Assembly: GCA_964643955.1 (NCBI GenBank) | Contig: CAZXUO010000004.1 | Location: 3,882 to 67,881, forward strand | Reading direction: 5' to 3' | Origin: an uncultured Candidatus Saccharibacteria bacterium | Lineage (GTDB): Bacteria > Patescibacteriota > Minisyncoccia > Phycocordibacterales > UBA918 | Length of the DNA: 64,000 nucleotides | In this document: piece by piece, positions 143 to 61,693 of the stretch | Position numbering within the stretch: position 1 is the stretch's first letter | Layout of the letters: the number at the start of each line of letters is the position of its first letter | Translations under genes and position numbers: made by a program | The notes under the pieces: model-generated | Database searches by the model: none | The model's input: the letters and a program-made list of their open reading frames with translations, nothing else | What the model was told of the DNA's origin: nothing

Positions 143-228
143 CGATATCGTTATTTTTTCGTGTCCACGGGGTAATATCATCACCTTCAAAAGCAAACGT
201 CGGAGCGTACGAAAAAATGACGATGTCG
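143..228. repeat. Palindromic intergenic element, copy 1 (arms cgatatcgttattttttcgt / acgaaaaaatgacgatgtcg flanking conserved core)
   Basis: Core about 80% identical to 6506-6573; outer inverted-repeat arms differ from copy 2 but stay complementary. Confidence 0.6.
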
Positions 229-274
229 AGAGGCTCTCATGTGTTAGTGAAAAATTAGTATACTTCTCAGTATT

Positions 275-769
275 ATGCGCGTACTCGCCTGCGACCCTGG
301 ATACGACCGACTTGGTATAGCCGTGCTTGAGAAAATGCACGGAAAAGAGCACCTACTTTTTTCTTCGTGTGTCACCAGCGACAAAAAAGCTGCGATCGCC
401 GATCGTCTTCACACCATCGGCGCAGCGTTCTCTGCACTCATTGAGGAACACGCGCCTACACACATCGCGCTCGAAACGCTTTTCTTTAGTAAGAATGTAA
501 AGACTGCCATGCACGTCGCAGAGACCCGCGGCCTCCTCCTCTATATTGCGCGCGCAAAAGGCTGTACGGTCGTCGAGTACACCCCGCAAGAAGTAAAGGT
601 CGCGGTCACTGGCTACGGAAAGAGCGATAAGACGAGCGTGACCGCGATGGTAAAACGCCTCATCCCTTCGGTACGGCCTGGAGCGCTTGATGATGAGTAC
701 GACGCGGTCGCAGTCGGTATCACGGCACTCGCCTCTATTCGGGACATTTCCCCAACGAGAACGCACTAA
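275..769 (+). CDS. ruvC: Crossover junction endodeoxyribonuclease RuvC
   Basis: MRVLACDPGYDRLGIAVLE... RuvC N-terminal signature; size 164 aa; follows yebC. Confidence 0.85.
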   Translation: MRVLACDPGYDRLGIAVLEKMHGKEHLLFSSCVTSDKKAAIADRLHTIGAAFSALIEEHAPTHIALETLFFSKNVKTAMHVAETRGLLLYIARAKGCTVVEYTPQEVKVAVTGYGKSDKTSVTAMVKRLIPSVRPGALDDEYDAVAVGITALASIRDISPTRTH

Positions 770-772
770 TAT

Positions 773-1030
773 TTGCACAATCGAGTGCACTCTGGTAAAA
801 AAGACGTGTATTCGTTTTTGCATATCATGATTAATTTTTTACACACAGCATTTCCAGACGAAGAAGAGTCGGAAGATGACAAGGACGAAGCAGTCTCTGA
901 CGACGCACTCGATGCGCTCGACGAAGGCTTTGATGATGGACTCGACACCGCAACTGACGCACTCGCTGACGAAGAAGATGACGAAGACGCCGTGATATTT
1001 GACAAGCACGACGACGAAGACGAATTCTAG
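773..1030 (+). CDS. Small extremely acidic hypothetical protein (D/E-rich, low complexity)
   Basis: ORF directly after ruvC stop, followed by perfect terminator; no recognisable domain. Confidence 0.3.
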   Translation: MHNRVHSGKKDVYSFLHIMINFLHTAFPDEEESEDDKDEAVSDDALDALDEGFDDGLDTATDALADEEDDEDAVIFDKHDDEDEF

Positions 1031-1035
1031 CCAAC

Positions 1036-1079
1036 AAAAACTCCTGAGAAAAATCTCAGGAGTTTTTGTTACTTTTTTA
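1036..1079 (+). terminator. Rho-independent terminator
   Basis: aaaaactcctgag-aaaaat-ctcaggagttttt plus T tract. Confidence 0.7.
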
Positions 1080-1120
1080 CACTCACACCACACATTCCCT
1101 CTTTGTGCTAGTATCAGTGT

Positions 1121-3313
1121 ATGAAACGAGCACAGAGACTCTTTAAGAAGTATTACAAGCAAATAGCAGCAGATATCCTTCTCGGATTATTCGTTATTGG
1201 CCTTATTTTAGGCGGTATTTTAATGTTGTGGATCTCGACACTTGAGATTCCTGACCTTCAGGCATTTGAGCAGCGCCGCGTGCTCCAATCGACCAAAATA
1301 TATGACCGAACAGGCGAAGTGCTCCTCTACGACCTCCACCAAGATGTGCGCCGTACGATCGTGCCGTATGAGGAGATCTCTCGCCACATCATCAACGCAA
1401 GCGTTGCAATCGAAGACGACAGCTTCTTCCAGCACGGCGGTATTCGCCCACTCCGTACCTTCCAAGCAGTCTTTCAAAACTTCTTGAGTGGCGATCTCCT
1501 CGGCGGACAAGGTGGTTCGACTATCACGCAGCAGGTTATTAAAAACTCCGTACTCGCCCAAGAAAAGACGATCACTCGAAAAGTGAAGGAGTGGATTCTT
1601 GCGATCAAGCTTGAGCGACAGCTCACCAAGGAGGAAATCCTCGGTCACTACCTCAATGAATCACCGTATGGGGGCACCATCTATGGTGTCGAAGAAGCGA
1701 GTCAATCATTTTTTGGAAAGTCAGCGTCAGAGGTCACGCTTGCTGAAGCTGCGTACATCGCCGCACTTCCCCAGGCACCAACCTACTACTCTCCATACGG
1801 AAACAATCGTGATGAACTCGAGAAACGAAAGAACCTCGTACTCGAACAGATGAAAAAGAATGGATTTATTACGGACGAAGAGTACGAATCAGCAAAGACC
1901 GCGACGGTTGAGTTTCTCCCTCAGGCAACGAGCGGCATCCGCGCACCACACTTCGTCTTTTATGTTCGTGAGTACCTTGCAGAAAAGTATGGCGAGGAGT
2001 CGCTTGCTGAGCGCGGCTTCCGCGTCATCACCACACTCGATGCGAAGCTTCAAGAAAAGGCAGAAGAAGTAGTGAACCGCTATGCACTTACGAACGAGAA
2101 GACGTTCAATGCAAGTAACGCAGCGATGGTGGCGCAAGACCCGAAGACCGGAGAAATCCTCGTCATGGTCGGCTCACGCAATTATTTTGATGAAGATATT
2201 GACGGCAACTTCAACGTTGCTGTTGCTGATCGCCAGCCAGGATCATCCTTTAAGCCCTTTGTGTACGCTGCGGCTTTTGAAAAAGGCTACACGCCAGAGA
2301 CAGTTGTCTTTGATCTTCAGACACAATTCTCAACCGCATGTTCTCCTCAGGACATGACGAGCGAAAATGGTTGCTACTCACCACAAAACTACGACAACGC
2401 CTTCCGCGGACCGGTCTCTCTCCGCAACGCACTCGCACAATCACTCAACATTCCTGCAGTGAAGACGCTCTATCTTGCTGGCATCACTGATTCGATCAAG
2501 CTTGCGCGTGACATGGGCATCACCGGCCTTGCAGATCGCAACCGCTACGGACTCACGCTCGTACTTGGAGGCGGTGAAGTAAAGCTTGTTGATATGGTCA
2601 ATGCGTACGGCGTCTTTGCAAACGAAGGAAAGCGCGCGGAGCAGACACGCATCCTCCGCATTGAAGATGCGAGTGGAAACGTACTTGAGGAACATAAGCC
2701 AAAAGAAGACGAGGTGCTCGACCGCAACGTCGCACTTCAGATTTCTGACATTCTCTCAGACAATGTTGCGCGCGCACCACTCTATGGATCAAACTCGCAG
2801 CTCTACTTCCCCGGCATTGATGTTGCTGCAAAGACTGGTACGACCAACGACTACCGTGACGCATGGGTACTCGGCTATACACCGAACCTCGTCGTAGGTA
2901 CGTGGGCCGGCAACAATATTCCTGAACCAATGAACCAAATTTCAGGTCTTATCGTGACTCCAATGTGGCGTGAATTTATGGACTTTGCCCTCGCCGAGCG
3001 TGAAAAACAATCCTTCCCTGAACCTGCAGACACCCCTACTGACTTAAAGCCCGTACTACGCGGTATTTGGTTTGATCCGAGCTCAATCAGTATTGATCCA
3101 AACGCATCGAGCACCACTGGTGTCGGCAGCGCCATCAGCTCAGCACACGATATTCTCCACTATGTAATAAAAGACAACCCTCGCGGACCATATCCATCAA
3201 ATCCTGCTCAAGACCCACAGTATGCGTATTGGGAGTATCCCGTCACCCTCTGGAAAAACGGACTCACGGGTGGAGCGTCTTCACAAACACAAGATTCAGA
3301 AGACGACGACTAG
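1121..3313 (+). CDS. Class A penicillin-binding protein (transglycosylase + transpeptidase, PBP1A family)
   Basis: GT51 motifs (QHGGIRP, GGSTITQQ); transpeptidase SSFKP (SxxK) and KTGTT motifs; N-terminal TM anchor. Confidence 0.9.
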   Translation: MKRAQRLFKKYYKQIAADILLGLFVIGLILGGILMLWISTLEIPDLQAFEQRRVLQSTKIYDRTGEVLLYDLHQDVRRTIVPYEEISRHIINASVAIEDDSFFQHGGIRPLRTFQAVFQNFLSGDLLGGQGGSTITQQVIKNSVLAQEKTITRKVKEWILAIKLERQLTKEEILGHYLNESPYGGTIYGVEEASQSFFGKSASEVTLAEAAYIAALPQAPTYYSPYGNNRDELEKRKNLVLEQMKKNGFITDEEYESAKTATVEFLPQATSGIRAPHFVFYVREYLAEKYGEESLAERGFRVITTLDAKLQEKAEEVVNRYALTNEKTFNASNAAMVAQDPKTGEILVMVGSRNYFDEDIDGNFNVAVADRQPGSSFKPFVYAAAFEKGYTPETVVFDLQTQFSTACSPQDMTSENGCYSPQNYDNAFRGPVSLRNALAQSLNIPAVKTLYLAGITDSIKLARDMGITGLADRNRYGLTLVLGGGEVKLVDMVNAYGVFANEGKRAEQTRILRIEDASGNVLEEHKPKEDEVLDRNVALQISDILSDNVARAPLYGSNSQLYFPGIDVAAKTGTTNDYRDAWVLGYTPNLVVGTWAGNNIPEPMNQISGLIVTPMWREFMDFALAEREKQSFPEPADTPTDLKPVLRGIWFDPSSISIDPNASSTTGVGSAISSAHDILHYVIKDNPRGPYPSNPAQDPQYAYWEYPVTLWKNGLTGGASSQTQDSEDDD

Positions 3314-3619
3314 CTAGACCACGTGCTCTGGCATACCGTTTCCACCAAGTGTTTCTTTGCAGAGCGTGAGAATCTGTTTTTTGTTAAACATGATTTCGCT
3401 CTTATGTGGACCGGAGACCGCAACTGAGATAGTGCGTGTATGCACGTTATATCGCACCACATCGCGCGAGAGCGCGTGTTTGGTGATATGCTCCACCGCT
3501 GCACAGAACGCCGTCACCACGACGCCCTGAGGGGGTCGTAGGCGTGCCTGATATTTCGCAAAGAGACTACTTATCGGCACCGCGCCCTCATATTTTTCTT
3601 TCGCGCGCCTCCGTACCAT
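3314..3619 (-). CDS. DUF721/DciA-like small protein downstream of dnaN
   Basis: About 100 aa, pattern ...TISVAVSGPHKSEIMFNKKQIL resembles DUF721 core; position after dnaN. Confidence 0.4.
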   Translation of the reverse strand: MVRRRAKEKYEGAVPISSLFAKYQARLRPPQGVVVTAFCAAVEHITKHALSRDVVRYNVHTRTISVAVSGPHKSEIMFNKKQILTLCKETLGGNGMPEHVV

Positions 3620-3628
3620 ACAAAAATG

Positions 3629-4732
3629 CTAACGATTCATCGGCATCACCAGGTACCTGAGTGATTTTTCCGCAACCCCCTCCATCACCATCGGCCGGCC
3701 AACACCCGCAAAACGCAATACGATACTGTCGTCGATAAATGAACCGAGCGGATCATTGAGATAGCGCTGATTGAAACTCAATGCGAGCTCCTCTCCTTCG
3801 ATAGTTGCACTGATACCCTCTTCGGTTTTTCCGAGCTCCCCGTTGTCTGATGAAAAGGTGACGGTATTGCTCTTTGGATCGATAGTTGCGCGCACCTGAA
3901 GAAATGCATTCGTAAAGATGTTTGTCTTTTTGAGTGCGTGCGTGATGTCGCCACGCAATACCGTTGCATTTGTTTTAAATTCTTTTGGAATAATCTGCTG
4001 GTAGTCAGGGAACGACGCTTCAGTGAGTCGTGTTGCCACATAGACTCCCTTTGCAAAACGGAGTGCGAGCTGGTTTTCAGACACGACCATCTGTGGATCT
4101 TCATCTACGAGCTCTATGATCCGTGCAATCTCAAGAGCATTTTTAAACGGCACCAAGAGCGATGTCTCGAGAGTGACTCCCTTTTGTGGTACCACCTTTT
4201 CAATGAGGCGAAATGAGTCAGTTGCGACAAATGTGAGTGAGTGTTCTTTCTGTTGATGAATGAACACACTCCCAAGCTCGGGCTTGATGGATGATTGCGA
4301 CGCAGCAAACGCTGCTGTTTTTATACCAAGCGCAAAGAGTGCGCCGTTGAGTGTTTGTGTATTGCCCGAAAGCTGTTGGATTGCCGGAAACTCTTCTGAC
4401 GGAAGTGTTTTGATTGTTGTTCGAGATTTTCCCGACTCAACCACAAGCATATCTCCCTCTGACTTCAGGGTTACATTGCGATCATTTAAAAGCTGGACCG
4501 TCTGCATCAAGAGCGCTCCCGGCACTGCATGCACTCCCTCGCTTTTTACCACACCCGGAAGAACTACTTCGGCACTTAATTCCAAATTTGTTGCACGGAG
4601 CGTGAGTTGACCTTCGGTGTTTACGCTAAAGAGCACACACTGGAGTACGGGAAGTGTTTGATGCTTCGCACTGATACGTGCGAGTATCTCGAGTGCTTGC
4701 AGTAGTTTCTCCTTTTCAACATTGATGTGCAT
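3629..4732 (-). CDS. dnaN: DNA polymerase III beta subunit (sliding clamp)
   Basis: 367 aa, N-terminal MHINVEKEKLLQALEILARIS..., three-domain clamp architecture; dnaA-dnaN synteny. Confidence 0.9.
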   Translation of the reverse strand: MHINVEKEKLLQALEILARISAKHQTLPVLQCVLFSVNTEGQLTLRATNLELSAEVVLPGVVKSEGVHAVPGALLMQTVQLLNDRNVTLKSEGDMLVVESGKSRTTIKTLPSEEFPAIQQLSGNTQTLNGALFALGIKTAAFAASQSSIKPELGSVFIHQQKEHSLTFVATDSFRLIEKVVPQKGVTLETSLLVPFKNALEIARIIELVDEDPQMVVSENQLALRFAKGVYVATRLTEASFPDYQQIIPKEFKTNATVLRGDITHALKKTNIFTNAFLQVRATIDPKSNTVTFSSDNGELGKTEEGISATIEGEELALSFNQRYLNDPLGSFIDDSIVLRFAGVGRPMVMEGVAEKSLRYLVMPMNR

Positions 4733-4982
4733 AGCCGGTTGATTATTCTTTTTAAAAATCTTCTTATTATTAGGGGTGTTGATGAGGTGTATAACTCATT
4801 TCTATCGAGGTAGTACGGGATATTTCTATAAACAATTCTTCGGATTGCGTGGTGTATAGCGGGTGAATATCTGGGGATAGCTTGTGTGTGAAGTGTATAA
4901 GTGGAAGCTCGATGCTGCCTATTCCGCAGTGTTGTGCGACTCGATGCGCACCACAATACCTCCCCTTTCCACAGCCTATCCA
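4733..4982. promoter_or_regulatory. dnaA-dnaN spacer with DnaA-box-like 9-mers (candidate oriC / DUE region)
   Basis: ggtgtataa (4784-4792), gtgtatag (about 4853), agtgtataa (4902-4910), ctatccact (4970-4978), all one mismatch from TTATCCACA; AT-rich. Confidence 0.45.
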
Positions 4983-6377
4983 CTATTTTAAAAGAGCACG
5001 GATCTGCCCAAGCTCGTCTTCGAGCTCAGAGCTTCCCTTCAGATCATTTCTAATCTTTTCGCAGGAGTGAATGACGGTCGTGTGGTCGCGGCCACCGAGC
5101 TTGAGACCGATTGCGGGATACGACACCTGAAAATCTTCACGGAGGATGTACATAATGAGCTGTCGCGGCTTCACGATCTCTTTACGGCGCGTCTTTTCGT
5201 AGATGCTCGCAGGCTCTATTTCATAGAAACGCGCGACTTTATCCACTACATCAGAAACTGCAAGTGATTTTCGAGGACGGGTGCTGTTTTTGATAAGCAG
5301 CTTTACTTCGTCGAGTGAGAGCGTGCGCCCGAGGAGCTGCGACTGACACATGATGGTATTGAGCGCTCCTTCGAGCTCGCGCACGTTTCCCTCAATGGTT
5401 TGCGAGAGGTGTTCAACGACTGCGTCATCAAGCGTGATGCCGTGCTGTGCAGCTTTTGCCTTGAGAATAGCGCTTCGAGACTCAATATCGGGCGCAGGAA
5501 TATCAACGATCATTCCCTGCGCAAAACGTGAGCGGAGGCGCTCTTCCATGTGTGACATGAGGTGCGGCGCGACATCTGATGAAAAGACAATCTGCTTATT
5601 GTTGTCGTGAAGCGCGTTGAAGAGATGAAAAAGTTCTTCCTGCGTCTTCTCTTTATTTGCGAGAAATTGTACGTCGTCCATGATGAGAGCATCGTACTGT
5701 CGATACTTATCTTTAAAGCTGTTGGCGGTACCGTTTTGAAGCGAATTCATGAAGTCTACGGTGAAACGCTCACTCGTAACGTAGAACACTTTGCGTCCGA
5801 GGCGCTTGAGGTGATTTCCTACTGCTTGAATGAGATGCGTCTTGCCATGACCAGTCTTTCCGTAGATGAAAAGCGGGTTGTATGCGATGCCGGGCTTCTC
5901 TGCAACGGTCTTTGCAGCGGTATGTGCGAGCGCATTGAAGGGGCCGACGACAAAGGTGTCGAAAATATACTTTGGATTGAGGTTGTCGCTCTTGTTTATG
6001 TAATATTCCTCAAGTGGAAGTGCAGTATTGACCGTTTGTTGCTGCACTTTTTCGCTGCGCTTATCGTTTCGTGCTACCACTGCATACTCAACACTGCGCA
6101 CGTGCGGAGAAAGGTCACGGAGGGTCTTTAAAATGACGCTATGAAACTTGTCCGCAAGCCAATCCTTAACAAAGACACTCGGGACACCGACGGTCACCGT
6201 ACCGTCTTCAAGCGCCGTGATGTGTGTGTCCTTGAACCACGTCTTGAAGTTTGCGGGAGTGATGGAGAGTTCGATGTGGATAAGCGCGTCATCCCACAAT
6301 TGCTTCACATTGACGTGCTGTGTTTCAAGAGCAGTTGTCGTATGTGAAAGAGGACTCATACCAAAAGTTATAAGCAT
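4983..6377 (-). CDS. dnaA: Chromosomal replication initiator protein DnaA
   Basis: Walker A GKTGHGKTHL, AAA+ domain, C-terminal DnaA signature ...DHTTVIHSCEKI. Confidence 0.95.
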   Translation of the reverse strand: MLITFGMSPLSHTTTALETQHVNVKQLWDDALIHIELSITPANFKTWFKDTHITALEDGTVTVGVPSVFVKDWLADKFHSVILKTLRDLSPHVRSVEYAVVARNDKRSEKVQQQTVNTALPLEEYYINKSDNLNPKYIFDTFVVGPFNALAHTAAKTVAEKPGIAYNPLFIYGKTGHGKTHLIQAVGNHLKRLGRKVFYVTSERFTVDFMNSLQNGTANSFKDKYRQYDALIMDDVQFLANKEKTQEELFHLFNALHDNNKQIVFSSDVAPHLMSHMEERLRSRFAQGMIVDIPAPDIESRSAILKAKAAQHGITLDDAVVEHLSQTIEGNVRELEGALNTIMCQSQLLGRTLSLDEVKLLIKNSTRPRKSLAVSDVVDKVARFYEIEPASIYEKTRRKEIVKPRQLIMYILREDFQVSYPAIGLKLGGRDHTTVIHSCEKIRNDLKGSSELEDELGQIRALLK

Positions 6378-6680
6378 TATACGCCACCGACAGGGGGTGT
6401 AAACTCAGGCGCGTATTCCGCGCGTTTTATACACGTACTGGCGTCAACTGTGTATAACCTGTTGAAAAGTCGATTTCATATATTCCCTCTTAGCGCCGTA
6501 CTGCATATTTTTCGTATCCGTGGGAGCCATTTTCACCATCTTCAATAACAAACGTCGGAACGTACGAAAAATATGCAGTACGGCGCTGAGGCTGTCTTGT
6601 AGAGTGCCTAAGATTTCTAAGTCGCTACACTCCTAGAAATCTATTGAAAAAATAGGAATATAGTGTATTGTGTTGGGACT
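6378..6680. promoter_or_regulatory. Divergent dnaA / rpmH promoter region with two opposed DnaA-box-like sites
   Basis: ttatacacg (6426-6434) and tgtgtataa (6448-6456); also contains repeat copy 2. Confidence 0.4.
6493..6586. repeat. Palindromic intergenic element, copy 2 (perfect 24-bp inverted repeat gcgccgtactgcatatttttcgta ... tacgaaaaatatgcagtacggcgc)
   Basis: Perfect 24-bp IR around a 46-bp core that matches the copy at 143-228. Confidence 0.65.
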
Positions 6681-6818
6681 ATGTCAAAGCGAACCTACCA
6701 GCCGAAGAAGAAAAAGCGGGCTACAACCCACGGTTTTTTGGTCCGTTCGGCTACTCCGTCAGGAGCCAAAATCCTCCGTGCACGACGCCGTAAGGGCCGC
6801 GCAAAGCTCACGGTCTAA
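6681..6818 (+). CDS. rpmH: 50S ribosomal protein L34
   Basis: [45 protein letters not shown]; below ORF-track size cutoff; rpmH-rnpA-yidC synteny. Confidence 0.9.
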
Positions 6819-9282: not shown

Positions 9283-10143
9283 TTAATTATTGTACCTAAT
9301 ACAATAGGCGTTTGTACCAATTATGGCTCCGCCGAACTCGTCCCTGATCATTTCTGTTTGTGGAATACCACCAGGCTTTGCTCGACATTCAGTCATGAAA
9401 TAGATGATGTCACTTTGTGGACCTCTTCCTATTGTTGCATTAGGTGCGTGAGTATATTGTCGTGAATCGAGAAGAGTTGTGGGAGCGGCTAGTTTTTCCT
9501 GGAAGGCCGCAGCCTCTTCTTGTGTCGGTTGGGTAATCGTCACCGGATCAGGTCTGGGATTTAAGAGGTCACCAGGACGCTGCTGTGTACTTGTCTCCAC
9601 CACCACCGCCGGCTCCGCAACGCTCTGCAGGGGCGACATTCTTTGCAGGATATCTAGGTTTAAAATATTTCTATTAATGGTCTGCAGTACCACGACTGTT
9701 GAGAGTATGATGAGAAGTCCTAGAAGTGAATTCTGTATATCCTTTTTGGCCTCTTCCTTTGAAAAAACCACATCAGATGACATGTATTTGACACCTGCCA
9801 CGATGATCTTTACAACAGCAATTAACGCCCCAATACCAACAGCGAGCCTGAATAGTACATTTATGTATTCAGGAAGTGTCCTGTTTGCACCATCGAGTCC
9901 CGGAAGATTGACGAGGGGTGTGTACACACCCTTTGCAGCTGGACCTTGCGCTGTATTACTGACAGTCGCTGGCTTGTTTTGGTTGACGTTATTACCCGGC
10001 ACAGTACTTTCGGGTGCTGTGTTCCCTATCGTTCCTTCAGGTCCCATGGGAATATATTCGTTTTCCTGGGCGTGGACAGCTCCGAAGAAAATCAAAAAAA
10101 TGAAGAGTGGACTAAATATTTTTACAAATGATGCTTTAGACAT
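9283..10143 (-). CDS. Pilin-like secreted protein, paralog A (signal peptide, Pro/Asn-rich linker, two hydrophobic helices, variable C-terminal domain)
   Basis: First 165 aa identical to 11303-12145 product; VirB2/TrbC-like hairpin of two hydrophobic helices (LFRLAVGIGALIAVVKIIVAGV / LLGLLIILSTVVVLQTI). Confidence 0.4.
   Translation of the reverse strand: MSKASFVKIFSPLFIFLIFFGAVHAQENEYIPMGPEGTIGNTAPESTVPGNNVNQNKPATVSNTAQGPAAKGVYTPLVNLPGLDGANRTLPEYINVLFRLAVGIGALIAVVKIIVAGVKYMSSDVVFSKEEAKKDIQNSLLGLLIILSTVVVLQTINRNILNLDILQRMSPLQSVAEPAVVVETSTQQRPGDLLNPRPDPVTITQPTQEEAAAFQEKLAAPTTLLDSRQYTHAPNATIGRGPQSDIIYFMTECRAKPGGIPQTEMIRDEFGGAIIGTNAYCIRYNN
9598..10077. repeat. 480-bp direct repeat, copy 1 (identical to 11597-12076)
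   Basis: Apparently 100% nucleotide identity over 5' halves of the two pilin-like genes. Confidence 0.8.
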
Positions 10144-11302: not shown

Positions 11303-12145
11303 TTAGGGGTTGAGACCGAGAATCTCTGCACAGCCTGCCTTTAAGGGAGGAGGATTTTTGACAAGATAGTTTGGAATTTCACACTGCATGACAGATCCAT
11401 CAGTTGTTTGTCGTGAGTGCATGGTTCCACCCTTACAAGAGCACTCAGCTCGCTTGTCACGAATGACGGCTGTCTGTCCTGAAGTTGATCCAGAAAGGCC
11501 ACCTGAAAAATCAATGGTGACCCCAGAGGAGGAGGCCATTCTTTGAAGATCTTCGTTTGGGGGCACGTCTACGAAGATTGCTGTCGGCGCCGGTTCCACC
11601 ACCACCGCCGGCTCCGCAACGCTCTGCAGGGGCGACATTCTTTGCAGGATATCTAGGTTTAAAATATTTCTATTAATGGTCTGCAGTACCACGACTGTTG
11701 AGAGTATGATGAGAAGTCCTAGAAGTGAATTCTGTATATCCTTTTTGGCCTCTTCCTTTGAAAAAACCACATCAGATGACATGTATTTGACACCTGCCAC
11801 GATGATCTTTACAACAGCAATTAACGCCCCAATACCAACAGCGAGCCTGAATAGTACATTTATGTATTCAGGAAGTGTCCTGTTTGCACCATCGAGTCCC
11901 GGAAGATTGACGAGGGGTGTGTACACACCCTTTGCAGCTGGACCTTGCGCTGTATTACTGACAGTCGCTGGCTTGTTTTGGTTGACGTTATTACCCGGCA
12001 CAGTACTTTCGGGTGCTGTGTTCCCTATCGTTCCTTCAGGTCCCATGGGAATATATTCGTTTTCCTGGGCGTGGATGGTATTGAATGGAATAAGTAGTGA
12101 AAAAAGAATACCCACTGCAGTAAAAAATTTATAAAGATCTAACAT
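11303..12145 (-). CDS. Pilin-like secreted protein, paralog B (Cys-rich variable C-terminal domain)
   Basis: Same N-terminal module as paralog A, different about 100-aa C-terminus (CSC...C...C); hairpin plus T tract downstream (11250-11300). Confidence 0.4.
   Translation of the reverse strand: MLDLYKFFTAVGILFSLLIPFNTIHAQENEYIPMGPEGTIGNTAPESTVPGNNVNQNKPATVSNTAQGPAAKGVYTPLVNLPGLDGANRTLPEYINVLFRLAVGIGALIAVVKIIVAGVKYMSSDVVFSKEEAKKDIQNSLLGLLIILSTVVVLQTINRNILNLDILQRMSPLQSVAEPAVVVEPAPTAIFVDVPPNEDLQRMASSSGVTIDFSGGLSGSTSGQTAVIRDKRAECSCKGGTMHSRQTTDGSVMQCEIPNYLVKNPPPLKAGCAEILGLNP
11597..12076. repeat. 480-bp direct repeat, copy 2
   Basis: See 9598-10077. Confidence 0.8.
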
Positions 12146-30475: not shown

Positions 30476-31438
30476 ATGAACGTATCTATGAATCTCTCCG
30501 ACCTCAAACGCGAATTCCTCGAGTATCTTGAGATTGAAAAGGGCCGCTCGCTCAAGACAATTACTAATTATGACCATTATCTGAGCCGTTTTTTGGAATA
30601 TGCGAAGGTAGAACGGCCAAAAGACCTTACTGAGCCCTTGATTCGGGAATTCCGTCTTTGGCTCAACCGACAACCTGGTACCAAGACCGGCCGTACCCAA
30701 GAAACCCTAAAGCGTCGTACCCAAAACTACTACCTCATTGCCCTTAGGGCGTTCCTCAAGTACCTGCGCAAACGCGGCATTGAATCCTTAAGTCCTGAGC
30801 GTATTGAGCTTGCAAAAGTCGGTGAACGTTCGCTCGACTTGATCACTGCAGCGGAGCTTGAGCGCCTCCTTTCTGCGCCGGATACCTCAGGAGAGCGCGG
30901 ACTGCGTGATCGAGCACTCCTTGAGCTCCTTTTCTCTACCGGCCTGCGTGTTTCCGAGCTCTGCGGGCTCTCTATCGATGATGTAGATCTCTCTCGGGAT
31001 GAGTTTTCAGTACGCGGCAAGGGAGACAAGGTGCGCGTCGTGTTTCTCTCTGACGTTGCAAAGGATTGTATTCGTGCGTACCTCAAGGTGCGCAAGGATA
31101 TGGATGACGCACTTTTTGTACAGTGCCGAGCAGATGACGCAAAAAACGAGAAGGAATTGAAAAAAGCTGCAAAGAAGCCACGAGAGCTGCGGCTCTCCCC
31201 TCGCGCAGTCCAGCGTATGGTGAAACACTATGCATCAAAGGCGGGTATCACCCGCAAAGTCACGCCGCACGTCATTCGTCACAGTTTCGCAACCGATCTC
31301 CTTTCAAATGGTGCGGATATTCGCTCAGTACAGACGCTTTTGGGGCATGCCAACATCGTGACGACGCAGATCTATACGCACGTGACCGACAAGCATCTCC
31401 GCGACGTCCATAAACGGTTCCATAGCAGGAAGCGCTAA
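30476..31438 (+). CDS. Tyrosine recombinase XerC/XerD family
   Basis: N-terminal SAM-like core-binding domain; catalytic HVIRHSFATDLL...LLGHANIVTTQIYTHV with tyrosine. Confidence 0.85.
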   Translation: MNVSMNLSDLKREFLEYLEIEKGRSLKTITNYDHYLSRFLEYAKVERPKDLTEPLIREFRLWLNRQPGTKTGRTQETLKRRTQNYYLIALRAFLKYLRKRGIESLSPERIELAKVGERSLDLITAAELERLLSAPDTSGERGLRDRALLELLFSTGLRVSELCGLSIDDVDLSRDEFSVRGKGDKVRVVFLSDVAKDCIRAYLKVRKDMDDALFVQCRADDAKNEKELKKAAKKPRELRLSPRAVQRMVKHYASKAGITRKVTPHVIRHSFATDLLSNGADIRSVQTLLGHANIVTTQIYTHVTDKHLRDVHKRFHSRKR

Positions 31439-35047: not shown

Positions 35048-35072
35048 TGGTGCACCCGGCAGGACTCGAATC
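35048..35072 (-). other. Duplicated 3' end of tRNA-Arg (T-arm 3' half + acceptor 3' strand + ACCA) in cca leader
   Basis: 25/26 nt identical to the 3' end of tRNA-Arg at 35190-35215; no matching 5' half. Confidence 0.6.
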
Positions 35073-35189
35073 TTACAGATTCTGTGCAGGTCGTCGCTCT
35101 CTTGTTTCACTTCGCTCGCAAAACAGCTGACAACCTCTTCTCGTCCTAAAAATCTAACACATCTCTACGGTGGACGTCACCATACATTG

Positions 35190-35261
35190 TGCACCCGGCA
35201 GGACTCGAACCCACAATAACTGATCCGAAGTCAGTTGTGATATCCATTTCACTACGGGTGC
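35190..35261 (-). tRNA. tRNA-Arg (anticodon TCG)
   Basis: Manual fold: acceptor GCACCCG/CGGGTGC, D stem GTGA/TCAC, anticodon stem ACTGA/TCAGT, loop CTTCGGA, T loop TTCGAGT. Confidence 0.8.
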
Positions 35262-36309: not shown

Positions 36310-36453
36310 AAGACACTAAATGTCCTTTAAATAGAGGGAAAATGGAGTGGCGCTTTGGACCAGTGCGTGATACCATCGCTCGTGTGTGAGGGATGGTGCA
36401 ATGTATTTTTGTAGGGAAGGGTACTTTCAAAAAATAACTGTATTTGGCCCAGT

Positions 36454-36524
36454 CGGGGCGTAGCATAATGGTAGTGTACGCGGTTTGGGACCGTGTGGCC
36501 CGAGTTCGATTCTCGGCGCCCCGA
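36454..36524 (+). tRNA. tRNA-Pro (anticodon TGG)
   Basis: Acceptor CGGGGCG/CGCCCCG, anticodon stem CGCGG/CCGTG loop TTTGGGA, T arm CCGAG-TTCGATT-CTCGG. Confidence 0.8.
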
Positions 36525-36653
36525 CTGGTTTTGCTACAGGGATTTTTTTGAAAAGTGAGGATTAGAGGGGTAGTTTGCTCAATGCTGCCAAGAGGGGAGG
36601 TTTCTCATGAAAGGAGTCGAGGTTTCGTGCGTCTCACTATATAATGGTTTCCA

Positions 36654-58729: not shown

Positions 58730-60154
58730 GTGTTGGGTATACTTACACTATATATGTTTACGCGAGCACAGCGTACAAAAAATCTTTCGAAAGGACAGCT
58801 CGTCATCCTCATTCTTGTATTCGGATCGATTTTTCTTTTGATGCTCGCGTCGTTTCTTGGTTTGTTTATTACACAAAAGCGCTCCTCAGGCACTGCTGTA
58901 GAGCGAGAGCGCGCACTCCATATCGCCGAAGCAGGACTCGAGTACTACCGCTGGTACCTTGCACACAATCCAGGTGATATCACGAATGGTACGACAACAC
59001 CGCAGCCCTACATCCACCGCTACACGGATCCACAAACAGGACAGATCGGGCAGTTTGAGCTTACTGTAGAGGGAGCAAATGCTTCGTGCGGGCAAGTGGG
59101 CGCCATCGACATTACTTCGGTTGGATACACTGATGAAGATCCCGATACGAAACGAACTGTGCGCGGACGCTATGCGCGCCCGCTCGTTTCTGAGTATTCG
59201 TATGTGCTGAATGCGCCGTATACATTGATCGGTGCAGATCATGAGATCACTGGCCCGTATCACTCGAATGGCGATATTGAGATGGACGGCACCAATCATT
59301 CAATCATGACGAGTGCGCTTGAGGATGGTATCTACGGCGATGGCCCCAATGATGATTTGTGGCAGTTTCCGGTGCCGCCAGTTGATTTTGTCGGCATATC
59401 AGTCGATCTTTCGGCGATGAAAACTGCTGCGCAGAGCTCGGGTCTTCATTTTGGTCCGTCAAATAAGAAGGGATATCACGTGCTCTTTAAGTCAAACGGC
59501 ACCATTGAGGTGAGAAAGGTGAAGAGTACGTACAGCATGAATGCATATCGCGTTGATAATAATAACGAACAGACGGAAGATAATTTGATTAAAGAGCTCG
59601 AAAGCGCAACGACATACACTATTCCCAATAATTGCGCAATTTTGTTCTTTGAAGATCGCGTATGGGTAGAGGGGGTAGTCAACAAAAAAGTGACGCTTGT
59701 TGCTGCGCGTCCCGCGCACAGCACCGACCCGTCACTCATTCTCCCGGGAAATATAACCTATACAACCAACGATGGCTCCGCGGGACTTCTCGCGATTGCA
59801 GAAGATGATGTGCTCATCGCGCTCAATTCTCCTGAGGACATGACGATCAATGGTATTTTTGTCGCTCAGAAAGGATATTTTGGAAGAAATGGATATGGTA
59901 CCCGGGATAATGGTGTTCCAACAGGATATTCGAGTTACATAAAACAAGACGAGTTAGAAATTAATGGTACGATCATTTCAAACGGACGATCGGCAACTAA
60001 GTGGGTATCCGGCGGAGGCACGCTCTCTTCTGGGTATAACCATCGTGAAAGTTCTTACAATCGCACCCTTGTAGAAAATCCTCCACCAATGACTCCTGCA
60101 ACATCTGCTGATTACCAATTCATCGAGTGGAGAGAAGAAGTCGAAGCGCCATAG
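58730..60154 (+). CDS. PilX-like minor pilin paralog 1
   Basis: N-terminal hydrophobic helix then ALHIAEAGLEYYRWYL (PilX_N-like); first about 150 aa nearly identical to paralog 2. Confidence 0.45.
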   Translation: MLGILTLYMFTRAQRTKNLSKGQLVILILVFGSIFLLMLASFLGLFITQKRSSGTAVERERALHIAEAGLEYYRWYLAHNPGDITNGTTTPQPYIHRYTDPQTGQIGQFELTVEGANASCGQVGAIDITSVGYTDEDPDTKRTVRGRYARPLVSEYSYVLNAPYTLIGADHEITGPYHSNGDIEMDGTNHSIMTSALEDGIYGDGPNDDLWQFPVPPVDFVGISVDLSAMKTAAQSSGLHFGPSNKKGYHVLFKSNGTIEVRKVKSTYSMNAYRVDNNNEQTEDNLIKELESATTYTIPNNCAILFFEDRVWVEGVVNKKVTLVAARPAHSTDPSLILPGNITYTTNDGSAGLLAIAEDDVLIALNSPEDMTINGIFVAQKGYFGRNGYGTRDNGVPTGYSSYIKQDELEINGTIISNGRSATKWVSGGGTLSSGYNHRESSYNRTLVENPPPMTPATSADYQFIEWREEVEAP

Positions 60155-60157
60155 TGT

Positions 60158-61693
60158 ATGCATTCATCTCAACTAAAGCAGAAAGGATATTTTGTCATCA
60201 TGATTCTGGTCTTCGGATCGGTTTTTCTCCTCATGCTCACGGCCTTTACAGGTCTTCTGGTATCACAAAAGCGCTCCTCAGGCACTGCTGTAGAGCGAGA
60301 GCGTGCACTCCATATCGCCGAAGCAGGTCTCGAGTACTACCGCTGGTACCTCGCACACAATCCAGGTGATATCACGAATGGTACGACAACACCGCAGCCC
60401 TACATCCACCGCTACACGGATCCACAGACCGGGGAGGTGGGGCAATTTGAATTGACGGTAGAAGGTGCGCAGAGTGCGTGCGGATACATTGGTGCAGTCG
60501 ATATCACGTCGGTTGGTCGCCTCGATTCAGATCCCGACAAGCCGCGCGCCATCTTCGGTCGGTACACACGCCCAAACGTTGCTGAGTATGCGGCAATAAA
60601 TAATGTAGGGGTGTGGGTTGGCGGTGGTACCGAGATTAGTGGCCGGTGGCATTCAAATGGTGGCGTGCGCATGCAAGGCTACAACGATTCTGTGCTTACG
60701 AGCGCTGTAGAAACGTGGCTCTGTACCTCTTCGTACGGATGTACCCCAGACAGGACAGTGCCGGGAATTTATGGCTCTGGCGATGATTCTCTTTGGCAAT
60801 ACCCAGTGCCGCCGATAGATTTTGAGGGAATGGCAGTCGATCTTCTTGATATCAAGACGCGCGCGACTTCTGGCGGACGATACTTTGGCTCGGTAAGCGT
60901 GCCTCCACCCTCTTCAAATACCTTTAAAGGGTATCAGGTTATTTTCAAATCGGATGGTACCTTTGATGTATTTAAGGTGAAGAGCAATGCAGTAGATACA
61001 ACATGGGCGTATGACGAAGGTGGTGGAGGTGGTACGGGCTTTTGGTTTACTGATGAGATCCTCAAGTCGTCTCAGACGACGTGTGCAGCATCAAATCCGG
61101 GCAGCTCGAGCTGCACACGTGTTCTTGTGGGCAACTACACAATTCCAGACAACTGCAGTGTGCTCTTTTTTGAAGATCGTGTGTGGCTTGAGGGCGTCAT
61201 TACGAAGAAAGTTACCATGGCGGTTGGTGATCTCGTAAATGCGAATACGGATCGTTCTGCAATCATCCAAAATAACATCACCTATTCTCCTGACGACGGG
61301 ACTGCAGGCTTCTTACTTTTTGCAGAAAACGACGTAGTGATCCCGCTCAATATGCCAAATAATATGACCATCAATGGTATTTTTGTTGCCCAGAAAGGTG
61401 CGTTTGGTCGACACAAGTATTGTCCAGGCAACTGTTCTCCAGATCGTCAGGGTGGTAGTGAAGCAATGAACTCAAGTTATACGTCACATCGTATGAAAGA
61501 TTCCCTTACGATAAATGGAACACGTGTTTCTTACGGCAAGGCTGTCTTTTACTACTCAGAAAGTACTTCAGGCGTTCGAGACCGAACGTATTCATACGAT
61601 ACCGATCTGATCGACGATCCGCCGCCGCTTATTCCATCGACGTCTGAGGATTATCGCTTCACTATTTGGGAGGAAGTGCCGGTCGAGGAGTAG
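60158..61693 (+). CDS. PilX-like minor pilin paralog 2
   Basis: Same N-terminal module (nt about 60264-60434, about 97% identical to about 58863-59033), divergent remainder. Confidence 0.45.
   Translation: MHSSQLKQKGYFVIMILVFGSVFLLMLTAFTGLLVSQKRSSGTAVERERALHIAEAGLEYYRWYLAHNPGDITNGTTTPQPYIHRYTDPQTGEVGQFELTVEGAQSACGYIGAVDITSVGRLDSDPDKPRAIFGRYTRPNVAEYAAINNVGVWVGGGTEISGRWHSNGGVRMQGYNDSVLTSAVETWLCTSSYGCTPDRTVPGIYGSGDDSLWQYPVPPIDFEGMAVDLLDIKTRATSGGRYFGSVSVPPPSSNTFKGYQVIFKSDGTFDVFKVKSNAVDTTWAYDEGGGGGTGFWFTDEILKSSQTTCAASNPGSSSCTRVLVGNYTIPDNCSVLFFEDRVWLEGVITKKVTMAVGDLVNANTDRSAIIQNNITYSPDDGTAGFLLFAENDVVIPLNMPNNMTINGIFVAQKGAFGRHKYCPGNCSPDRQGGSEAMNSSYTSHRMKDSLTINGTRVSYGKAVFYYSESTSGVRDRTYSYDTDLIDDPPPLIPSTSEDYRFTIWEEVPVEE

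Follow-up and report, generated by a model that had tools for sequence, protein, structure and literature searches.

A lineage-restricted hairpin repeat of Candidatus Kaiserbacteria, apparently under selection, beside core promoters

Introduction

The ERIC (or IRU) sequences are multi-copy, non-coding, intergenic imperfect palindromes that fold into long stem-loops and whose sites differ between related genomes (PMC3184786). Here we describe an element, present in two copies in a 64,000-nt stretch of DNA (hereafter the window; contig CAZXUO010000004.1, positions 3,882 to 67,881), which is likewise a multi-copy, non-coding, intergenic imperfect palindrome of similar size (both about 100–130 nt), forms a long stem-loop and occupies sites that vary between genomes. 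This hairpin repeat is previously undescribed and forms a lineage-restricted family of Candidatus Kaiserbacteria that appears to be under selection. Whereas ERIC carries terminal inverted repeats, target duplications and a flanking TA (PMC3184786), the ends of the present element are its least conserved part and lack a consistent duplication, and a blastn search of 5,426 E. coli genomes with its first copy returned no match at E ≤ 0.1. For candidate-phyla-radiation bacteria, with their very small genomes and scant intergenic DNA, there are hardly any descriptions of small structured repeats.

Correia elements (CREE) and other MITEs of bacteria (miniature inverted-repeat transposable elements) form hairpins at the RNA level, often lie beside promoters and are variably present in related genomes (PMC3184786). 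The element is similar to them in size, in forming a hairpin, in its position next to promoters and in its variable presence. However, the definition of a MITE calls for target-site duplications and a core flanked by conserved terminal inverted repeats (PMC3184786), and the element has neither conserved terminal repeats nor consistent duplications; no IHF-site or outward-promoter motif was recognised in it. REPs are G+C-rich hairpins of 20–40 nt that number hundreds of copies and carry a conserved 5′ tetranucleotide (see also PMC3184786). Similar to REPs and BIMEs, the element is a strand-specific, intergenic, multi-copy hairpin, apparently domesticated, whose recognition would depend on structure plus a few conserved bases. 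It differs from them in its length of ~100 nt, its A/T-rich inner stem, its 46-nt centre and its asymmetric conserved core.

RNase III sites of the phage T7 type are intercistronic hairpins in which a stem of about two helical turns varies in sequence and the internal loops or bulges are conserved. The element resembles them in its stem of about two turns, its conserved bulges and its variable stem sequence, but most of its copies are not intercistronic. In attC sites and the end hairpins of IS200/IS605, structure is conserved over sequence and extrahelical bases on one strand give polarity; the element also conserves structure, with extrahelical bases on one strand. The conserved boxes of attC (RYYYAAC / GTTRRRY) are located at the base below a variable apex, whereas the element is conserved close to its apex and has no such boxes, and neither an integrase nor TnpA is present. 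The element behaves like ERIC, the Correia and other MITEs and the REP repeats, yet it is a member of none of them.

Results and Discussion

Two copies of one intergenic element

An earlier note on the window had reported two palindromic copies sharing a core of about 65 nt at about 80% identity. We confirmed both and found them to be slightly larger than first described, each a complete hairpin element and the two together copies of one intergenic element of ~100 nt. Copy 1 (141–230, + strand; inverted repeat I8) lies in the yebC–ruvC spacer, and copy 2 (6489–6590, + strand; inverted repeat I1) lies between a cluster of DnaA-box-like sequences and the rpmH promoter. The arms of copy 1 (141–162 and 209–230) are 22 nt long and form 20 Watson-Crick pairs and 2 G-T pairs. 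Those of copy 2 (6489–6516 and 6563–6590) are 28 nt long and complementary at 27 positions (96%), including the perfect 24-bp run already noted. Across inner stem, bulged helix and loop, the two copies are identical at 50 of 64 aligned columns (78%). The 22-mer AAACGTCGGAnCGTACGAAAAA is common to both copies and occurs exactly twice in the 64 kb, compared with no occurrence in 100 shuffles. Additionally, the copies share the stem base CCTC...GAGG, and a pairwise alignment matched copy 2 at 11 of 13 positions to the tail after copy 1, GAGGCTnTCnTGT (231–243, + strand), which overlaps the last stem bases.

Folded as RNA, the + strand of copy 1 reaches −37.6 kcal/mol (z −6.7 versus shuffles) and its complement −28.6 kcal/mol; the + strand folds clearly better because of its G.U pairs. 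The + strand of copy 2 reaches −50.7 kcal/mol (z −9.5 versus shuffles). Covariance models scored copy 1 at 80.6 and 90.2 bits and copy 2 at 90.5 and 105.8 bits and, with filters off, matched only these two copies in the window. Both lie upstream of + strand genes: the end of the copy 1 hairpin is 45 nt from the ATG (275) of ruvC (275–769, + strand; Pfam RuvC, E 3e-31), and that of copy 2 is 91 nt from the ATG (6681) of rpmH (6681–6818, + strand), identified as ribosomal protein L34 from its translation and from L34 calls at the same position in relatives.

Four further copies, in the same strain and in related lineages

Relatives were reached through DnaA homologues, those at 80–91% identity carrying the name Candidatus Kaiserbacteria, and the dnaA neighbourhoods of ten other lineages were searched with covariance models made from the known copies. 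This search yielded four additional copies, one in the same strain and three in other lineages, for a total of six including the two of the window. The third copy of the strain was found in locus L046, which is identical to the window across 9,625 bp and reaches 3.9 kb further left; this copy sits ~3.7 kb to the left of window position 1, its end being 74 nt upstream of a pilB-like (T2SSE) gene. The L047 copy is upstream of rpmH, in almost the same position as copy 2, and the L048 copy ends ~45 nt upstream of ruvB. The L042 copy, in the dnaA–rpmH spacer, has an inverted core and is visibly degenerate. All copies stand 45–130 nt upstream of a start codon.

An Rfam scan, proposed in the earlier note, placed the element in no family. 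Only four tRNAs in the window passed the gathering threshold of Rfam 15, and relaxed E-values gave only weak matches to generic microRNA-precursor hairpins (21–24 bits versus thresholds of 76–140). We also scanned an exact core pattern, AACGTCGGANCGTACGAAA, against 185,579 representative genomes, JGI metagenomes and viral contigs. The representative genomes and the metagenomes gave only chance or coding matches, mostly to one betaproteobacterial gene, and the viral contigs gave 0 matches. No match of the element to phages or plasmids was found.

A consensus structure maintained by compensatory changes

The six copies align without any indel in either arm. From the outside inward, the consensus fold begins with a long lower stem, which is followed by an inner stem rich in A/T and broken by a 2x2 loop. 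Next come a helix of 3 bp, an RCG bulge of 3 nt, the UCCG/CGGA helix, one bulged U and two further pairs, capped by a loop of 28–30 nt. The motif of the bulged helix is TCCRYG / CG-T-CGGA-RCG, with both the RCG and the single U/T bulges on the 3′ side. According to alignment A4 and the consensus structure, the bulged helix of copy 1 (164–207, + strand) pairs TCCACG (164–169) with CGTCGGAGCG (198–207) around a 28-nt apical loop. In copy 2 (6517–6562, + strand; alignment A4 and pair counts), TCCGTG (6517–6522) pairs with CGTCGGAACG (6553–6562) around a loop of 30 nt. The 2x2 loop is a tandem G.A in four copies and Watson-Crick in the two copies of the window. A kink-turn or C/D-box reading of the tandem G.A was rejected because covariation supports the 3-bp helix between the G.A and the 3-nt bulge. 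Inspection for a parS site, DnaA box, IHF site, geminivirus-like nonanucleotide or small open reading frame (ORF) in the core revealed none conserved across copies, and a parS scan placed no site inside the element.

The earlier note had argued that covariation between the arms suggests selection for a hairpin or cruciform, and the covariation extends to all six copies. Across 34 pairs, 87% of cells pair, compared with 34–52% when the partner is slid by 1–3 columns. Double (compensatory) changes occur in 22 of the 34 pairs, a level reached in 0 of 500 shuffles. The bulged helix is 75–100% identical in every copy pair, and identity drops toward both the loop and the foot. In the outer stem (columns 11–20 and 87–96), identity is 10–45% in most pairs, mostly at chance level, with the exception of two invariant C:G pairs at fixed columns. 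The apical loop is conserved only within sub-families, which it defines: loop identity is 64–71% among the three copies of this strain and 76% between L047 and L048, and falls to 20–50% across groups. The L047 and L048 copies, although at different loci, are also 95% identical in the inner stem.

Short resemblances to the empty sites of relatives prompted the idea that the outer arms are pre-existing target palindromes or inverted flank copies left by insertion. We rejected this idea because the arms are equal in length with invariant C:G pairs at two columns in all six copies, and because copies 1 and 2 share sequence outside the variable segment. The variable arms have no targets or matches elsewhere in the 64-kb window.

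With its stem of fixed length, its segment that is hypervariable but paired in every copy and its asymmetric, conserved core, the structure is also compatible with a more far-reaching and highly improbable proposal, in which the hairpins would serve a new RNA-based system, found specifically in candidate-phyla-radiation bacteria, as precursors or address tags. The bulged helix would then recruit a dedicated protein or nuclease, and the fixed-length, copy-specific duplex (10–14 bp unique per copy) would be measured and released, or read, as a small duplex RNA in the manner of a microRNA precursor. Each copy would then have its own specificity.

Probable purifying selection and preference for one strand

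Fourfold-degenerate dnaA sites are 33–45% identical between lineages and are thus saturated. At this distance, sequence free of constraint should no longer be recognisable, yet the core has been retained and pairing in the stems persists. Within the species, a second strain (L001) shows 41 differences over 1,222 positions. Its ruvC carries 28 differences, all at third codon positions (17% of those positions), and the 90-nt hairpin of copy 1 contains 2 single-nucleotide polymorphisms, one in the loop and one, uncompensated, in the stem. Conservation of the core across lineages and low polymorphism within the species argue for purifying selection on the whole hairpin.

The two strands of the element are not equivalent. 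In five copies, 12 G.U pairs stand against 3 A.C mismatches. With either RNA or DNA parameters, five of the six copies give a better fold for the sense strand, which has the same direction as the downstream gene, than for its complement. In the inverted and decaying L042 copy the complement folds better, and it is the complement that runs toward rpmH. The better-folding strand thus heads toward the next gene in all copies (ruvC, rpmH twice, ruvB and the pilB-like gene). Left of the origin, compositional skew would push the bias the other way, so selection acting on one single strand offers the simpler explanation. This asymmetry fits RNA or a strand-specific single-stranded DNA and does not fit a symmetric duplex or cruciform site.

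A stem-loop module that may act on RNA

The interpretation that we tentatively prefer, as possible rather than probable, is a strand-specific stem-loop module acting on RNA that is transcribed toward the next promoter. Each copy, when single-stranded, folds into one long hairpin on the strand heading to the next gene. The lower stem would serve as a duplex of fixed length whose sequence is free to vary while it pairs, and the conserved bulged helix would be the recognition site for a protein or nuclease. The transcripts involved would be yebC read-through at copy 1 and upstream or divergent transcription at the other copies. The role may be that of a processing, stability or insulating stem-loop, like the REP, ERIC and Correia repeats or the RNase III sites of phage T7. 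A gene-specific regulator is not what we envisage, because the contexts differ between copies and the element is missing at the orthologous sites of most relatives.

Several observations weigh against this interpretation. Divergent promoters flank five of the six copies, an arrangement in which the element is not expected to be transcribed through: three are in dnaA/rpmH spacers, a strong TTGACT-17-TATAAT promoter abuts the third copy, and TTGACA-17-TAGTAT stands next to the L048 copy. Transcription through such spacers would need either its own promoter or a divergent promoter firing both ways, and promoter scans found no convincing sigma-70-type promoter upstream of the hairpins. The 64-kb window yielded no gene for RNase III or for any other partner protein. 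The sample behind the strand bias in G.U pairs and A.C mismatches is small, at 15 events. Lastly, all three copies in this strain are grouped near oriC (within 10 kb of it, in a stretch of ~10.4 kb), with 0 in the other 57 kb, and a model based on RNA leaves this clustering unexplained.

Whatever its mode of action, an apparently selected element of ~100 nt with several copies beside core promoters (rpmH/dnaA, ruvC, ruvB and the pilB-like gene) points to an unrecognised interaction between protein and nucleic acid. With an alignment, a structure and a covariance model in hand, it is a candidate for a new RNA or DNA motif family.

Patchy distribution and the possibility of mobile DNA

Copies are present in four of 11 lineages, namely that of the window strain and three other lineages of Candidatus Kaiserbacteria, and the remaining seven lineages have no copy in 12–21 kb around dnaA. 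In these seven lineages, yebC–ruvC spacers measure just 18–45 nt and the rpmH promoter follows the DnaA boxes almost directly. The dnaA–rpmH spacer is occupied in 3 of 11 lineages and empty in 8 of 11, and its DnaA-box block and rpmH promoter are kept in all 11.

The multi-copy, patchy presence of the element at orthologous sites raises the possibility of a selfish, non-autonomous mobile DNA, either a MITE or another palindromic insertion, without host function and tolerated where a compact genome has its few non-transcribed places, such as spacers between divergent promoters. The earlier suggestion of a MITE-like element agrees loosely with this pattern. Both orientations occur in the dnaA–rpmH spacer (L042 versus the window and L047), very similar copies occupy different loci of different genomes (L047 and L048), the L047 copy is flanked by a direct repeat of 8 bp, TATACGCA (uncorrected p about 0.008), and divergent-promoter spacers house five of the six copies. 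Other observations argue against mobile DNA. Conservation peaks in the centre and is lowest toward the ends, the reverse of what terminal inverted repeats show when a transposase binds them. Five of six copies lack a consistent target-site duplication, their direct repeats being no better than in shuffles and lying at differing distances from the hairpin, and no transposase domain was found among the ORFs of the 64-kb window. Additionally, a core conserved despite saturated synonymous sites, together with low polymorphism within the species, suggests purifying selection and not neutral decay. We consider a selfish insertion unlikely; it and the single-stranded DNA hairpin discussed below are the main rivals, and independent small RNAs and gene-specific leaders are less likely.

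A different palindromic element was observed in the yebC–ruvC spacer of L044 (19349–19582). It is 230 nt long, contains multiple hairpins, is closed by a 24-nt inverted repeat and folds with a z of −6.3. The inner stem of the present element is similar to the inner arms of this one, GGTATTTTCGA / TCGAAAATACC, and it was not detected by the covariance model. It is possible that the two are distantly related.

The origin region and possible recognition as single-stranded DNA

The gene order in this part of the window is yebC (3′ end), ruvC, a class A penicillin-binding protein gene, dnaN and dnaA (both on the minus strand), rpmH, rnpA and yidC. GC skew changes sign near 2–6 kb of the window, which fits an origin inside the dnaA–rpmH spacer. 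This spacer contains the DnaA-box-like cluster, TTATACACG and TGTGTATAA (6427–6457, no strand assigned), which was read from the sequence and lies outside the element; the DnaA-box block gtcaactgtgtataacctgttga is kept in loci L041–L054. For the copy near dnaA, the earlier note had considered a role in origin function. This proposal finds no support, as the spacer is empty in eight of 11 lineages and other copies are found upstream of ruvC, ruvB and the pilB-like gene. For annotation, the palindrome beside dnaA is not part of oriC, and a false lead is thereby removed.

Proximity to the origin nevertheless bears on a second rival, in which the element acts as DNA. A protein active in replication, recombination or DNA uptake would recognise a strand-specific hairpin in single-stranded DNA, by analogy with HUH transposase hairpins (REP/RAYT, IS200/IS605), integron attC sites and single-strand initiation signals; alternatively, an inverted repeat between divergent promoters would respond to supercoiling. 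The grouping of three copies in ~10.4 kb at or beside oriC, against none in the other 57 kb, and the location of five of the six copies in non-transcribed divergent spacers would both be accommodated. DNA hairpins recognised by proteins typically carry extrahelical bases on one strand, and the element conserves such bases on one strand only; DNA parameters likewise give it a good fold and the same preference between strands. However, arms separated by a 46-nt spacer are unlikely to extrude as a cruciform from duplex DNA. Single-stranded DNA hairpins usually act on the lagging-strand template, whereas, judging from the skew, the better-folding strand left of the origin would be the leading-strand template. 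No HUH or RAYT gene and no Y1/HUH domain was found in the 64-kb window, the sole tyrosine recombinase there resembles housekeeping XerC/D, and the R-box motifs of attC are absent from the element. On balance, we regard action at the DNA level as doubtful, to about the same degree as selfish DNA.

Promoter positions, leaders and small RNAs

The position of the element relative to promoters bears on a cis-regulatory leader, attenuator or riboswitch for the downstream gene. All copies lie 45–130 nt upstream of a start codon with the better-folding strand in gene sense, as expected of a leader. However, a promoter scan placed the rpmH promoter, TTGAAA-16-TATTGT (6644–6671, + strand), downstream of copy 2, and the arrangement TTGAAA...TAYNNT is present at all related rpmH loci. 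Copy 2, between the DnaA-box block and this conserved promoter, is therefore upstream of the promoter and outside the rpmH leader. On its other side, the scan placed a divergent dnaA promoter, TTTACA-16-TATAAT (6376–6403, minus strand; 11 of 12 matches), and the same promoter is present in L047. The element has neither a U-tract nor an alternative pairing, and no terminator-like site was called at either window copy; real terminators of this genome are short G+C-rich hairpins with T-runs. The downstream genes are unrelated to each other (ruvC, rpmH, ruvB and pilB-like), and the element is absent before the same genes in most relatives. Known aptamers have far shorter closing stems than the 23–29 bp seen here. 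With most copies between divergent promoters, the attenuator proposed in the earlier note is not upheld, and we judge any gene-specific leader to be very unlikely.

Independent small RNA genes, with a multi-copy hairpin RNA transcribed from its own promoter at the foot of the stem, are also quite unlikely, if less so than a leader. In four copies, TATA-like hexamers (TATATT, TATACC, TATACG and AATACC) occur 2–3 nt upstream of the hairpin foot, and strand asymmetry and strong covariation would suit a small RNA. The copies with hexamers are those in the dnaA–rpmH spacer or upstream of the pilB-like gene; copy 1 and the L048 copy have none. However, the conserved final T is absent from three of the four hexamers, and none of them is preceded by a −35 box at the proper spacing. 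Additionally, no terminator follows the hairpin, and there is no match in Rfam.

Other features of the region

Other small structures were observed around the dnaA–rpmH spacer. Directly upstream of the rpmH −35 box is a small hairpin, AGATTTCTA ... TAGAAATCT (6611–6643), with 9-bp arms and a 15-nt loop, and relatives carry other, unrelated hairpins at this spot, such as a perfect 15-bp hairpin in L044 (9833–9869). In the stretch 6357–6377 (minus strand), the first ATG of the dnaA ORF (6377) overlaps the TATAAT box of the predicted dnaA promoter. Comparison with the MSPLSHT... start of relatives suggests that the true dnaA start is the ATG at 6359, giving a DnaA of 458 amino acids.

Between the pilB-like gene and ruvB we observed a separate conserved, structured element of ~150–200 nt. 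It is found in L046 (11081–11504, ~1.5–1.9 kb left of window position 1), L041 (19180–19334), L042 (13725–13873), L048 (10250–10394) and L054, and is closed by a 26–30-bp stem, ATCCAGGnGATAACCCTCTAAGCAA / TTGCTTAGAGGGTTAT..CCTGGAT. It has an apparent conserved strong promoter on the strand opposite ruvB (TTGACA-17-TAGTAT in L048) and no Rfam match, relaxed thresholds included. It may be an unrecognised housekeeping RNA, for example one that is 6S-like.

In L041, L042, L048, L054 and L059, a gene of the tyrosyl-tRNA-synthetase family (tRNA-synt_1b) lies between the small ORF that follows ruvC and the penicillin-binding-protein gene; it is missing from this strain at that position (window 770–1120). 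Beside yidC, a conserved PrgI / TraC-like / VirB4-like cluster contains two paralogous genes resembling pilins of type IV secretion systems (9283–10143 and 11303–12145). These share a direct repeat of 300 nt or longer that is 100% identical (9596–9895 and 11595–11894), and this identity suggests recent gene conversion.

Further into the window, a tyrosine recombinase gene is located at 30476–31438. An exact 21-nt direct repeat (35050–35070 and 35189–35209, 139 nt apart) has one copy overlapping the end of a tRNA gene (35190–35261, minus strand) and may be the remnant of an integration site or a partial tRNA duplication. An imperfect inverted repeat of 32 nt, 75% complementary, surrounds another tRNA gene (36454–36524) at 36429–36548. 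Lastly, positions 58730–61693 contain two adjacent paralogues of 474 and 511 amino acids that have no Pfam match and share several stretches of 60–300 nt at 74–84% identity.

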